Under the pieces are notes generated by a model that saw only the letters and a program-made list of their open reading frames with translations, had not been told where the DNA came from and made no database searches. Shown in pieces: positions 40,587 through 52,433 of a DNA stretch of 52,433 bases. Within the stretch, counting starts at the first letter, position 1, and the number at the start of each line of letters is the position of its first letter. This stretch comes from Escherichia virus TH23. Both the position numbers and the translations under genes were made by a program. The stretch lies in sequence record MT446397.1; one strand, 5' to 3'.

Positions 40587-40858
40587 TCGCGAGTTGCAAT
40601 TTGCATGGACTTGTTTGGTCCGAGGTAGAAGTATTTCTTAACTTCCTCAAGTGTGTATTTAGCACTGCTTCCGAGTATGTCTTTGAAAGTGTGCTTCCAG
40701 AACCCATCTTTCTCCGAAATTCCTACGGTAAAGTCGTTGGTGCCGTTGTACCACCAACGTCCGCCAACCAGGACGAAGTGGATTGTTTCTTCCTCACCTG
40801 TGGGAGCTGTTGTTACATTTCTTAATGTCAAAACTTTAGCAGAATGCTTGCGAATCAT
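40547..40858 (-). CDS. Hypothetical protein (C-terminus ...YGVPF)
   Basis: 103-aa ORF with GGAGAG Shine-Dalgarno. Confidence 0.35.
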   Translation of the reverse strand: MIRKHSAKVLTLRNVTTAPTGEEETIHFVLVGGRWWYNGTNDFTVGISEKDGFWKHTFKDILGSSAKYTLEEVKKYFYLGPNKSMQIATREWTTNQPTYGVPF

Positions 40859-41493
40859 AGGAACTCTCCAATTTTCGATTCAGTGTTTGTGACTTCTCTT
40901 CTCATCTTTTGGCCCAGGAACAGGCCACAGGGTAGCGCAGGAAGGCCGAAAATCGGGCCACTGCCTACCGTTTGTGTCAATTCTGGATAACTGCATTGGC
41001 GAAGGGTTACTCCCGTTAGGGTGCGATACGCTAATCACATGAGTGTCGTCGCCATACGGCTCAGGCGTGTCACAGAGGCTTTGCAACCCTTCCCAATACA
41101 TTCACCCAAATCCCAGCGTTGGCGTAGCTGGTGGCTCGGTTTTGTGCGGATTATGCCACTCTAAGCCCTGTTTGTCCGACTTTCTCGGAGCACCAGCGAC
41201 TTGTGGCACAAACCTATTTTCGAATGACTAACATAAGCATGAGGCATAACCCTCTAATTATTCAGCCCTAACAGCTTGCTTATTTAGTACCAATTCAACC
41301 CAATACATCGACCTATAACAAGTGATTAGCTTCTGCGAAGAAGTATTCTGGCCCTTTGGCCTATGTTAAAAGATAAGTGTATTTGATGGAAACATTCCAT
41401 CGAAAATAACTTTGTAGAATGAGTTGAACATTCTCGCACGTTATCGGCCGTAACGGTCTACCGAGTTACAAAGTTATTATCTGATGTTGTTTC

Positions 41494-41510
41494 TTCAATT
41501 CCAACTAATG
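41494..41510 (-). promoter_or_regulatory. Conserved intergenic motif copy (candidate phage promoter)
   Basis: Minus strand CATTAGTTGGAATTGAA, at the upstream edge of the 40.9-41.7 kb island. Confidence 0.3.
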
Positions 41511-41540
41511 TTTCAGAATTATTCCAATATTCCAAACAAA

Positions 41541-41609
41541 AAGAATAATAAGAATAAATTAAATAAATGAAGAAAGTGCTTGACACCCATTTGGCTATAA
41601 GTGTATAAT
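41541..41609 (+). promoter_or_regulatory. Consensus sigma70-type promoter with A-tract UP-like element, oriented opposite to all genes
   Basis: TTGACA at 41580..41585, 18-nt spacer, TATAAT at 41604..41609; upstream A-tracts aaagaataataagaataaattaaataaatg. Confidence 0.5.
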
Positions 41610-41634
41610 GCCTTTCTTCCCTAAGAGGTCAGAA

Positions 41635-41650
41635 TCAAATCCCACTAATG
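41635..41650 (-). promoter_or_regulatory. Conserved intergenic motif copy (candidate phage promoter)
   Basis: Minus strand CATTAGTGGGATTTGA; shares a 14-nt identity (actaatgtttcaga) with the 41494 copy. Confidence 0.3.
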
Positions 41651-41720
41651 TTTCAGACTAAAGCCGAAGGCCAATGCGAGTACAAAACCCGCTTGGCACT
41701 TCGAAGAAACCCGCCTGGAA

Positions 41721-41924
41721 CTATAGTGTTTTCCAGTCTGAATCAAACATTACAGTTGGTCGAGTAAAGATTGTTGAAGAATCGGTGCTCAAGAAGGTAT
41801 GATTCCCATACCGTTTAACTTCCTGATAAGCAAATCCCTCAATCCACTCTCCGCTGGTGGCTTTAATCTTCGTTGGCCCCAGAATACGGTAATAAGTATT
41901 TCTTGGCTGGTGATGAACAATCAT
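41721..41924 (-). CDS. Hypothetical protein
   Basis: Internal start of the 41721..42026 ORF after the upstream gene stop. Confidence 0.25.
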   Translation of the reverse strand: MIVHHQPRNTYYRILGPTKIKATSGEWIEGFAYQEVKRYGNHTFLSTDSSTIFTRPTVMFDSDWKTL

Positions 41925-41937
41925 CTCAGCTTCGATT

Positions 41938-42558
41938 TCAGATGTTTTCAAGCTGCGCACGAAACAATACCCCATTTGAGAAGATGAAGTCTGAACCATA
42001 ATCGTGAACAAACTTCTCCCAATCAATGTAGTTCAGTAAATTATCAGGAATGCCATACGAATCGCTTTCCTGTCGGAAATACTGCTCCATAGAGTCAAAT
42101 TCTCCGATATACGCATCAAGCAAATTAACTTCTTGATAGAAGATATCAATTTCATCACTGTCGTATGCAGCCATGATAATTTCTTCACTAACTTCTGTCA
42201 GCAAATTGTTATAATGGTCGTAGCGAGTGCGACTAAAGACACCTTTAATAAAGCAGAGCTTGGTTACGCTGTCATCATCTGATTCGATAATGTCATACGT
42301 GCCGGTTTCAGGGAATTCGATTCCGTATTCTTCATGCAGATACTCCTGCATATTGAAGTCATAGAGCCGCCATGCCAGACCATCAATCCAAACATCTTCA
42401 AATTCAGAGTTGTTTTCGCCTGTGTAGAAACGAACCAATAAGGTTTCATCTCTACGCCAGGACTTAAGTTGTTCCACTGCTTTAGTAATGTTATCGTTTT
42501 GCATTAAGTTTCTCCCACATACCTTGAAGTTCCATGTTAAGGATTTTGAGCTGTTCAA
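41938..42558 (-). CDS. Acidic protein, ArdA-like antirestriction candidate
   Basis: 206 aa, strongly acidic; C-terminal NYIDWEKFVHDYGSDFIFSNGVLF resembles the ArdA region as recalled; true start may be the internal MQNDNITK. Confidence 0.35.
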   Translation of the reverse strand: MNSSKSLTWNFKVCGRNLMQNDNITKAVEQLKSWRRDETLLVRFYTGENNSEFEDVWIDGLAWRLYDFNMQEYLHEEYGIEFPETGTYDIIESDDDSVTKLCFIKGVFSRTRYDHYNNLLTEVSEEIIMAAYDSDEIDIFYQEVNLLDAYIGEFDSMEQYFRQESDSYGIPDNLLNYIDWEKFVHDYGSDFIFSNGVLFRAQLENI

Positions 42559-42781
42559 TTCGCCCTTTCCCGCCCTTTACTAGTATGTCCAGGATGGCGG
42601 TCTTCTCTTCATATGTTACTAGATAACAGCATCTGCCAACCTCAATTTCGTGTCTCAGACTACGGGAATCTTGCACATGATTTGACAAATGTTGGTGGAG
42701 TTCTGCCTCTGCACGAGACGTACGCTCCTGCATACGCTCTAATTCTTTCGGTATTTCCTGATATTCCATCGGATACTCCAT
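42491..42781 (-). CDS. Hypothetical coiled-coil protein
   Basis: 96-aa ORF. Confidence 0.3.
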   Translation of the reverse strand: MEYPMEYQEIPKELERMQERTSRAEAELHQHLSNHVQDSRSLRHEIEVGRCCYLVTYEEKTAILDILVKGGKGRIEQLKILNMELQGMWEKLNAKR

Positions 42782-45572: not shown

Positions 45573-45731
45573 TTGAATTAATCAGGAACACTCAATGAAT
45601 GCTCCTTGTTAATTTAACGCGCCAGTTTATATTCCTGCTTGTAATAGCAGCAGGTTGGCAAAGCCTATAACAATCGTAATTATAACAACGCTAATAGTAA
45701 GTGTCAGTATTAGGTATTTAATATTCAATCC

Positions 45732-48859: not shown

Positions 48860-49715
48860 CGAATTTTGTCACAATTAAACATGCGTCATTAATTACAGGT
48901 TTACTCCCACCTTGAATGTATTTGGCACATTAAGATTGGAGCAAGCAGGTACGGAAAACCGACCATGTACAGCATAATAAAACTAATTAAATAAAGGGTT
49001 TTATCCCAATATTGTCACAATATTTACATGCGATGATAAAGCCTTCGCTTGGCTGGAAGCCAGTATTCATGCGGGTTGCAAGAATATTGGGTCAATACTG
49101 ATACAGCTATTACATGTGAAATTGGCACAAATACTGTTACAAAATTAACATGCCGGATTGGTAGACAATTGTATCTTCGAGGTGATTAGTCCTCTAACAA
49201 TTCTGCCACATTCTAACATGCCAATTTGTAGCAATATTTACATGCCATACTGTGACGCAATTGTCACAATATTTGTTGCTCAAAATCGGGGCGGGCTACG
49301 GGATTAGTTTCGCGGCTTTGCTCCGACTCTTCTCTTCTTTCGAATTAAGATAGAAAGAAAGAAGCATGTCCAAAAGTTCCAGTCTTGCCAAAGTTATCTC
49401 CCGGCTTGTGGGTGGGCCTTTATAATAGGAGATGGAGCAATATTGTCGCAATTGAACATGCTTTAGTTGAAGAACAGTTTCGAATGATAATCCTACTTCA
49501 CACATGGTTGCTGGAACTTTGTCTGGCCAAAGACAGGGAGTTCAATGATTGCCACATCATTACAACGCTGTGTGTTTAGTTGACATGCTGAAATGTTTCT
49601 AGAATGATTTCAACATGACATGCGGAATACTTCTCCGTATTCTGTTACTTCACATCCAACTAATGTCGAATATTGAAACAATATTACATGCAGCAATATT
49701 GCTTGAATATTGGGA
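48860..49715. repeat. Cluster of at least nine degenerate copies of an AT-rich 20-mer (consensus TTGTCACAATATTTACATGC), mostly one orientation, one palindromic unit TGTGACgcaattGTCACA
   Basis: Copies near 48866, 49011, 49122, 49201, 49225, 49249-49280, 49441, 49550 and 49676; related copies near 199-270 and 435-470. Confidence 0.6.
49649..49665 (-). promoter_or_regulatory. Conserved intergenic motif copy (candidate phage promoter)
   Basis: Minus strand CATTAGTTGGATGTGAA, about 75 nt downstream of the RNA polymerase terminator. Confidence 0.35.
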
Positions 49716-51999: not shown

Positions 52000-52433
52000 C
52001 GTGCTCTGATTGCCTTTGACCTTGACCCACTACCTAACTTGGTGTTGATTGAAAGCCGATAGGCTATAGGAAAAAGTTGGGGTAGGGACCGTATTTAAGT
52101 CCGATAGGACGTTGGGCTTCCCCTCCTCGGAGATAAAATTTTAAAAATAATAATGACACAACTTCCCCCCCCCCGCCACCTCAAAAATAAAATAATATCG
52201 CCACAATTCTAGTCTCATTAATATTGAAACAATTCGAGTCTCATTAATTCCGTAGCAATATTTAAATTAAAAAAAAAATTATATAAAATTTTTATAACAT
52301 AGTCGGGCTTCTGTTCGAACAAATTTCGGCTAGATACAGCTGACCGATTGTGAACGAGTCTATGTCCAGATACAGTTGACCGATCATTTACCATTTGGTT
52401 TGAACTTTACGCATTCCTAATATTACTTTAAAT
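52000..52433. repeat. Direct terminal repeat, right copy
   Basis: Matches 1..433 with one extra C in the poly-C run. Confidence 0.85.

Follow-up and report, generated by a model that had tools for sequence, protein, structure and literature searches.

Why does a phage with its genes on one strand keep a consensus host promoter that points the other way? The question is raised by the genome of Escherichia virus TH23 (MT446397.1; 52,433 nucleotides, the whole stretch being called the window here), a Carltongylesvirus (Chaseviridae, Cleopatravirinae) of the phiEcoM-GJ1 (GJ1) and ST32 type. These phages are myoviruses that encode a T7-like single-subunit RNA polymerase, together with a T7-like primase-helicase and DNA polymerase. 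All open reading frames (ORFs) of at least 100 amino acids in the tiling set of the window lie on the minus strand, a layout likewise published for ST32 and GJ1 (PMC6266442). The plus strand carries a sigma70-type element, TTGACA-N18-TATAAT, within an 860-bp gap that holds no credible ORFs (40859-41720) and is unannotated in ST32 too. The explanation that accounts best for this element is a genuine sigma70 promoter that would drive convergent antisense transcription at the boundary of early and middle genes and has been kept throughout the Cleopatravirinae; we hold it with even confidence, as about equally likely to be right or wrong.

The first-pass annotation, made from the sequence of the window, had described a near-perfect sigma70 promoter with upstream A-tracts at 41541-41609, directed against every gene, unlikely to arise by chance in 52 kb, and starting an RNA near 41616. 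Its account of sequence and orientation agrees with what was found: the hexamers at 41580-41609 match the consensus in 12 of 12 positions, an A/T-rich tract precedes them (41541-41579), and the element stands on the plus strand, opposite to all ORFs of the tiling set. Counting seven nucleotides past the -10 hexamer leads to approximately 41616, a start predicted from geometry, at which the bases are pyrimidines. No other 12/12 match occurs in the window on either strand; the second-best match (11/12) is on the gene strand at 45707. This sequence (45707-45679, minus strand; CTGACA-17-TATAAT with a TG extended -10) is the best host-type promoter of the gene strand and lies within the early region. 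The statement about chance holds in direction, and only modestly for one genome: an exact TTGACA-N16-18-TATAAT was present at least once, counting both strands, in 4.05% of 2000 first-order Markov (Markov-1) random genomes of 52 kb, and the number expected analytically is 0.045. With a probability of about 4% per genome, uniqueness alone is weak, suggestive evidence.

Within Carltongylesvirus, the exact TTGACA-N18-TATAAT is found in 14 of 14 phages inspected, among which four positions of the spacer vary. Over 40800-42600, the window matches Escherichia virus TH28 at 100% identity, and ST32, Mangalitsa, PO103-1, and other members of the genus at approximately 88-90%. Since the whole 281-bp block at 41440-41720 is kept at 94-98% identity in about 45 records of the genus (the neighboring ArdA protein is merely 55-70% identical), conservation at this level is uninformative. 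Beyond the genus, the exact promoter recurs in five other genus-level lineages (Table 1) in the corresponding syntenic position, where it occupies the anti-gene strand and immediately follows an ArdA-like gene and a small gene; among the promoter-bearing phages, polymerase identity falls to 66%, and ArdA identity to 22-35%. Comparing the six genera in pairs gives an average identity of 1.00 in the hexamers, against 0.46 in the spacer and 0.45-0.46 in the 20-nt flanks, and the invariant columns amount to 12/12 in the hexamers versus 2/18 in the spacer (Fisher p = 1e-6). The spacer measures exactly 18 bp in every lineage, the aligned Loessnervirus clade included, and the -10 hexamer TATAAT is invariant in all Cleopatravirinae lineages examined, with the exception of Papaline (TAAAAT). 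On one strand of a 900-bp gap, 1.3e-4 exact N18 matches would be expected, yet one was found in each of six genera. In the scanned stretches of PP101 (16 kb), Myduc (16 kb), and GJ1 (50 kb) the element is again the sole 12/12 match, and a single further match of at least 11/12 on either strand turned up (Myduc 4637, anti-gene strand). The context is constant as well; the promoter always lies just past ArdA, the small gene, and a terminator-like hairpin, and in all six genera the core of the putative phage-polymerase promoter P4 follows, in reverse orientation, 29-46 nt after the -10 hexamer. As hexamers and spacing are invariant while spacer and flanks drift, selection appears to act on the two hexamers and their distance, a combination known to be read only by the sigma70 holoenzyme; judged by this pattern, the element is under strong purifying selection across genera.

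No match of at least 11/12 was found on either strand in Nefertitivirinae (pAh6-C, Spp001) or in Shantouvirus ZPAH14; by this distribution, the element is a Cleopatravirinae trait. Additional relatives were sought with a 19-mer search, which gained one, and with a generic promoter pattern against IMG/VR, which was too unspecific to inform; ArdA alignments were too divergent for locating loci.

The Loessnervirus clade (Y2, SSEM1, Papaline, SNUABM27) has kept the -10 hexamer and the 18-bp frame, and the -35 slot reads TTATTA or TTGTTG (3/6); L163, an uncultivated relative with Loessnervirus-homologous flanks, has TGGACA-N18-TATAAT. A 10-bp spacer deletion in Loessnervirus (TTGACA-N8-TATAAT) was considered and rejected, as the gap-free alignment with L163 shows the 18-bp frame, and the TTGACA of the N8 version corresponds to an intra-spacer motif, TTGnCAC. 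The aligned frame and the retained -10 hexamer thus indicate that the promoter was weakened, not rearranged, in this clade; the decay seems to follow promoter logic, with the -10 hexamer and frame staying in place and the -35 hexamer eroding. The reverse P4 core is located about 110 nt after the -10 hexamer in Loessnervirus, and a phage-promoter-like motif on the anti-gene strand, CTTAGTTGAxTTGGGATTC, appears 30-85 nt downstream of the -10 hexamer (12.3 bits in Y2, SSEM1, and Papaline, 11.3 in L163, and 7.7 in SNUABM27) as the sole anti-gene hit in the 5.5-kb Loessnervirus loci. This motif may have taken over the antisense role in the clade; antisense transcription itself would then be what is kept, a suggestion that fits the motif and is only a lead.

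The spacer of the promoter has features of its own. In the window it contains a small inverted repeat (ACAC..GTGT) that is lengthened by G.U pairs on the gene-strand RNA, where the region folds into a hairpin (ACACUUAU/AUGGGUGU); palindromes of different sequence occupy the spacers of 4HA13 (ACAGAAT/ATTCTGT), Faunus (ACAGAT/ATCTGT), and phiA050 (ACACAT/ATGTGT), and no such stem was found in the spacers of PP101 and Myduc. The arms covary, the register of pairing differs by 1 bp from genus to genus (L127, L128, L129, and L163 compared), and the loop motif TTGnCAC is semi-conserved (TTGGCTA in the window, TTGTCAC in L163, TTGACAC in 4HA13, TTGCGCAC in PP101, TTAGTCAC in Myduc). Perhaps the palindrome forms a hairpin in the leader RNA made from P4 on the gene strand. 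Three other candidates for the spacer were rejected. A MerR-type promoter needs a 19-20 bp spacer with a dyad operator; here the spacer has 18 bp, and the half-sites of the dyad, present in four genera, differ and covary in the manner of a hairpin. Neither the window nor the other genera conserve a sigma28-like sequence of the GJ1 spacer (GGCGATAA), and a 23-codon minus-strand ORF within the spacer is not conserved across genera.

Table 1. Features of the promoter locus in the window, spacers of the exact promoter in other genera, and the anti-gene motif of the Loessnervirus clade.
Feature	Position or lineage	Strand	Remarks
-35 hexamer TTGACA	41580..41585	+	6/6 consensus match
Spacer, 18 bp	41586..41603	+	CCCATTTGGCTATAAGTG; length invariant, sequence variable
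-10 hexamer TATAAT	41604..41609	+	6/6 consensus match; next base always G
Predicted transcription start of antisense RNA	41615..41618	+	usual 6-9 nt from -10; bases T, C, T, T
A/T-rich, UP-element-like tract	41518..41579	upstream of -35	GC 0.22-0.25
Putative phage-polymerase promoter P4, GAAACATTAGTGGGATTTGA	41635..41654	-	"putative phage promoter 4" in NC_010106; weight matrix 18 bits; faces sigma70 promoter
Putative phage-polymerase promoter P5, GAAACATTAGTTGGAATTGA	41494..41513	-	"putative phage promoter 5" in NC_010106; weight matrix 31 bits; back-to-back with sigma70 promoter
Terminator-like hairpin, then CUUUAGU	41664..41704	-	closes early block, just upstream of P4
Convergent small gene, function unknown	41721..42026	-	phrog_2652; 3' end would be first coding target of antisense RNA
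ArdA-like anti-restriction gene	41938..42558	-	phrog_14321 "anti-restriction protein", E = 1e-44
Exact promoter, 4HA13	Sabourvirus	anti-gene	spacer GAATTTTGACACATTCTG
Exact promoter, Faunus	Faunusvirus, Erwinia host	anti-gene	spacer CAGATTTCGGCACATCTG
Exact promoter, phiA050	Aeromonas host	anti-gene	spacer CACATTTTGGCCGATGTG
Exact promoter, PP101 (and PM1-like contig)	Suwonvirus, Pectobacterium host	anti-gene	PP101 spacer AGGTTTTGCGCACAGGTG
Exact promoter, Myduc	Myducvirus, Proteus host	anti-gene	spacer GGATTAGTCACAGATTGG
Motif CTTAGTTGAxTTGGGATTC	L131/L132/L133 3422; L163 11285; L136 11765	anti-gene	weight matrix 7.7-12.3 bits

The element is set into a compact series of signals; read along the gene strand, these are ArdA, the small gene, hairpins, P4, the opposed sigma70 promoter, the A/T tract, P5, and about 630 bp of non-coding sequence. 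The ArdA-like protein scores 21.1 bits with the Pfam family ArdA (PF07275), under the 27-bit cut-off, and the small gene follows ArdA in synteny in all genera examined. A first hairpin lies over the stop codon of the small gene, and the large terminator-like hairpin comes after it; the 91-nt segment from 41745 to 41655 folds with -31.7 kcal/mol (z = -3.07), whereas its plus strand is less stable (-25.3 kcal/mol) and the hairpin has no U-tail on that strand. The distal stem shows compensatory changes across genera (GCC/GGC, GCTGC/GCAGC, GCGGC/GCCGC, GCGC/GCGC), and the SA91KD record annotates a rho-independent terminator at the homologous place. Only two 80-bp windows of the genome are lower in GC than the tract upstream of the -35 hexamer, which contains the 8-mer TATTCCAA twice, plus GAATAAT / GAATAAAT, and further copies of such repeats are present in 4HA13, Faunus, and phiA050; in the six genera, the 40 nt upstream of the -35 hexamer are 62-92% A+T, a figure that speaks for composition and not for a specific UP consensus.

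The first-pass annotation had also noticed that two motif copies flank the promoter. They are real (41495-41517 and 41635-41657; a 23-nt repeat of 91% identity) and coincide with the putative phage promoters P4 and P5 of GJ1 on the gene strand; the window is reverse-complemented relative to GJ1, so that a window position equals approximately 52150 minus the GJ1 position. A weight matrix built from 32 gene-strand instances (consensus aACATTAGTTGGATgTGAa) gave 21 matches of at least 10 bits on the gene strand of the window and one on the anti-gene strand; at 15 bits or more, 14 and 0 remained (for example at 49670, 48819, 45577, 41515, 39890, and 39558). This strongly oriented signal is good evidence for a promoter of the phage polymerase; according to the profile by the virus taxonomy committee ICTV, the promoters of the Chaseviridae polymerase "have not yet been identified" (PMC12842549). 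P4 and the sigma70 promoter are separated by about 20 bp in opposite orientations. The position of P5 relative to the promoter is not conserved, with a P5-like motif about 320 bp away in PP101 and none in Myduc. TATTCC/GGAATA repeats are present as 4-9 direct and inverted 8-mer copies in the window, 4HA13, Faunus, and phiA050; the notion that the promoter depends on their array, as an operator or as iterons, was rejected, since neither PP101 nor Myduc has it next to the promoter. Nine putative phage promoters are listed in the GJ1 record, along with a single host promoter located upstream of the polymerase gene; the sigma70-type element is not among them, nor is it annotated in the records of SA91KD, Mangalitsa, Myduc, and other relatives.

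Near P5, ST32, SA91KD, Mangalitsa, and others carry insertions of 140-200 bp that are bounded by a duplicated phage-promoter motif (CAATTCCAACTAATGT...; L001 3155-3300, L124 1560-1700, and L002 3193-3385, compared with 41494-41513 of the window); the phage-promoter motif seems to act as a hotspot of recombination or indel formation. Downstream of P5 on the minus strand, the stretch 40859-41494 extends for about 630 bp without a credible ORF before the next gene (40858). A 73-aa ORF at 40880-41101 had no family hit, and GJ1 annotates a doubtful "SbcC" ORF in this stretch. It is 92-95% identical in ST32 and SA91KD, with cross-genus blocks at 41226-41285 (90% in 4HA13, 93% in Y2) and 41365-41414 (88% in Faunus), and might be transcribed from P5 as a long leader or a non-coding RNA.

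The plus-strand RNA predicted to start at about 41616 would reach the stop codon of the convergent gene after 105 nt and ArdA after 322 nt. A conserved hairpin with U-run was not found within 330 nt on the plus strand in 11 phages; Rfam 15 families did not match anywhere in the window at gathering score, nor in 40800-42100 at E <=1, and no tRNA was found at the element. Plus-strand small ORFs at 41648 and 41674 were rejected as products, both being broken by a 1-nt indel in GJ1, and no plus-strand ORF is conserved. The C/G ratio of this RNA is 1.1-2.2, against a genome median of 1.1; it is mildly raised and not decisive for Rho loading. A discrete cis-antisense small RNA gene of the oop or sar type was likewise rejected; the geometry provides convergence and overlap, but a terminator of its own is not conserved. 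The transcript would probably be an open-ended, non-coding antisense RNA that is ended by Rho or by collision. The earlier suggestion of an RNA antisense to 41721..42558, including ArdA, can be kept on geometric grounds for the small gene, from 105 nt downstream; for ArdA it needs more than 320 nt of untranslated read-through. Antisense coverage of ArdA is possible given that no plus-strand terminator is conserved, yet Rho could stop the RNA earlier.

These observations can be combined into a model in which an antisense regulator is the leading idea. We infer that the promoter is used in vivo; host polymerase would start early in infection at about 41616, transcribe the gene-free strand, and produce a non-coding RNA without its own terminator that would traverse P4 head-on, pass the early-block terminator hairpin, and run into the small gene from its 3' end, with ArdA possibly reached as well. 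The promoter would serve as a convergent antisense boundary element that opposes read-through of host polymerase beyond the early-block hairpin; its RNA would be complementary to the 3' ends of early mRNAs, and reciprocal interference with the facing P4 would be expected. Jointly, these effects may help to set the early-to-middle switch. A more specific version, tentative and on the unlikely side, is a two-polymerase switch: active host polymerase would occupy the site and fire from it, blocking both the first middle promoter P4 and the exit of host polymerase from the early block, until host shut-off or abundant phage polymerase clears the block and allows middle transcription, and perhaps replication from the adjacent A/T region.

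Several points weigh against a convergent antisense promoter. With no conserved 3' end or RNA structure found on the plus-strand RNA, the sequence gives no indication of an RNA-based function, and ArdA is needed immediately on infection, so that there is little evident reason to silence it early. The palindrome and the TTGnCAC motif are constraints of the spacer itself, so that part of the regional conservation would have another cause. The predicted start bases at 41615-41618 are all pyrimidines, which are less favorable for initiation, and pyrimidines are found in PP101 too; the seventh base after the -10 hexamer is A or G in 4HA13, Faunus, phiA050, and Myduc. The 18-bp spacer exceeds the optimum of 17 by one base, within the range of 16-19 bp. 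Loessnervirus manages on a 9/12 version, which argues that a strong promoter is not indispensable. Finally, transcript data for members of the Chaseviridae were looked for in the literature and not found; promoter activity is a prediction.

One alternative is an origin-linked promoter, in which P4, the A/T repeats, and P5 would constitute a primary origin in the style of T7, and the host promoter, directed away from the A/T-rich tract, would help to open it through the negative supercoiling in the wake of the polymerase, or would prime the leftward strand. The arrangement of P4, the A/T-rich tract at 41579-41518 (GC about 0.22), and P5 does provide a promoter combined with an A/T stretch, the tandem phage-promoter motifs being 140 bp apart and bracketing the third most A/T-rich 80 bp of the genome; the recurring TATTCC/GGAATA 8-mers and the T7-like primase-helicase and DNA polymerase are compatible with an origin, and the block is situated about 20% in from the PhageTerm-mapped left end of relatives. 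In T7, the primary origin is found at about 15% of the genome. In lambda, promoter cross-talk beside the origin tunes replication (PMC3985674). However, the 12/12 promoter is kept in PP101, where the P5-like motif is some 320 bp off and the array is missing, and in Myduc, in each case without an adjacent array or second phage promoter, and the idea of an origin loses weight since the A/T array is not conserved beside the promoter. The plus-strand RNA would never cross the A/T-rich tract, and cumulative GC skew is monotonic, without a turn at the element; the skew is weak evidence because all genes are on one strand. An origin is, on balance, an unlikely explanation. The site could instead park polymerase, whose tight binding would delay or block P4 until host-polymerase shut-off, and might also become a sink as genomes multiply. 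Perfect hexamers bind polymerase very tightly and can escape slowly; with the P4 core only 29-46 nt after the -10 hexamer in six genera, the footprints of the two polymerases would abut in Carltongylesvirus and Myduc, and the lack of any conserved RNA feature is in keeping with parking. The P4 distance varies by 17 bp, though, so that footprints would not overlap in 4HA13 and Faunus, and in Loessnervirus P4 is about 110 nt away and the -35 hexamer weak. A single site per genome makes a weak sink, and the decoy for host polymerase that the first-pass annotation had offered finds no specific support. Parking, which overlaps with the interference part of convergent transcription, is distinctly unlikely as an explanation in its own right.

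A product acting in trans, either a small RNA on host or phage targets or a tiny protein, would be in keeping with the fold of the first 130 nt of the plus-strand RNA, which is better than that of shuffled sequences (-35.5 kcal/mol, z = -3.5), and with the 94-98% identity of the promoter block within the genus. This fold is explained by the gene-strand terminator hairpin, which is the more stable on the minus strand (-31.7 versus -25.3 kcal/mol); moreover, the missing conserved terminator, the lack of an Rfam match even at E = 1, the disruption of the plus-strand ORFs by the GJ1 indel, and a downstream sequence that cannot be aligned across genera apart from gene-strand elements render a trans-acting product very improbable. 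A chance match without promoter function, carried along by conserved neighbors, would be compatible with a single exact match at a 4% chance per genome and with the conservation of the whole 281-bp block within Carltongylesvirus, but hexamers and spacing are invariant across genera while the 18 bases between them and the sequences on both sides vary, and six genera have a match where 1.3e-4 would be expected per gap strand; the likelihood of chance is close to negligible.

On the scale of the whole genome, the PhageTerm-annotated terminal repeats of Myduc, Mangalitsa, and 4HA13 begin beside the polymerase gene, which places the sigma70-type element about 10.5-12.7 kb from the left end and not at a terminus. 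A genome terminus at the element had been considered on account of phage flopper (NC_048845.1), whose record opens at the P5 motif (window position ~41500), and was rejected, the PhageTerm termini of relatives being about 10 kb away; the flopper record probably starts where the assembly broke at a repeated motif, rather than at a physical end. At position 52000 the first 40 bases of the window occur again (1-434 versus 52000-52433), so that its ends probably overlap by about 434 bp, either from circular assembly or as part of a long terminal repeat; the most A/T-rich 80-bp windows of the genome are at both ends (217 and 52217). ARAGORN called a tRNA of undetermined identity at 38081-38150 (minus strand), the GJ1 equivalent of which is annotated as a 95-nt tRNA-Arg that "may contain an intron." "Staphylococcus phage Pel53" (PP952070.1; host S. 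hyicus) is a typical Carltongylesvirus with 97% identity in both the polymerase and the promoter block, and its host label looks wrong.

The transcription program of the Chaseviridae is essentially unstudied, and a consensus promoter fixed in at least six genera gives immediate access to it: the promoter marks the early/middle boundary, directly faces a candidate phage promoter, and can be mutated with no change to coding sequence. If the model is true, the locus would be a clean example from nature in which two unrelated RNA polymerases regulate each other by convergent transcription, and a source of a strong, compact, well-insulated promoter part; if the promoter is silent, some other and more surprising reason would have to be found for the invariance of the hexamers. 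No description of the element was found in the literature or in database records, the original GJ1 paper left aside.

By analogy, the closest documented case is the lambda promoter pO, which is convergent with pR, lowers transcription from pR, and tunes replication (PMC3985674). Both pO and the Cleopatravirinae element are host sigma70 promoters that oppose an early operon from a short intergenic gap, and in both cases the RNA overlaps, or is predicted to overlap, the 3' end of an upstream gene (cII in lambda). The Cleopatravirinae promoter differs from pO in its perfect match to the consensus, and lambda is a temperate phage served by host polymerase only, whereas the facing promoter is here a putative one for a phage-encoded single-subunit polymerase. 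The oop RNA of lambda is a discrete 77-nt RNA with its own terminator; in contrast, no terminator is conserved on the plus-strand RNA of the Cleopatravirinae. Face-to-face promoters that lie tens of base pairs apart and create a temporal switch by mutual suppression are known as Psar/Pant in P22 and as pR/pL in coliphage 186. Both partners in these temperate phages are promoters of the host polymerase, in contrast to the present pair with its putative phage-polymerase promoter, where interference is predicted only.

T7 itself, which like the Cleopatravirinae encodes its own polymerase, has a host-type promoter directed against its genes: A0, a leftward minor E. coli promoter at the extreme left end that has no assigned function and does not match the consensus. 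A0 is not known to be conserved across genera; the Cleopatravirinae element is conserved and located about 10.5 kb into the genome, at the early/middle boundary. The primary origin of T7 consists of the promoters phi1.1A and phi1.1B and an A/T-rich region, without a host promoter. It resembles the present locus in its tandem phage promoters and A/T stretch, in fractional position, and in the types of replication proteins, but PP101 and Myduc have not kept the A/T array next to the promoter. In the T7-like phage LUZ100, ONT-cappable-seq has revealed antisense RNAs in the structural region (PMC10134795); LUZ100 likewise combines non-coding antisense transcription with its own polymerase and one-strand genes, documented there by transcript data and indicated here by sequence conservation only. 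Antisense or convergent host promoters in phages are a known kind of element; the Cleopatravirinae promoter is unusual in that it fits the consensus perfectly, is fixed family-wide in genomes whose genes are strictly on one strand, and meets a candidate promoter for a different polymerase head-on.

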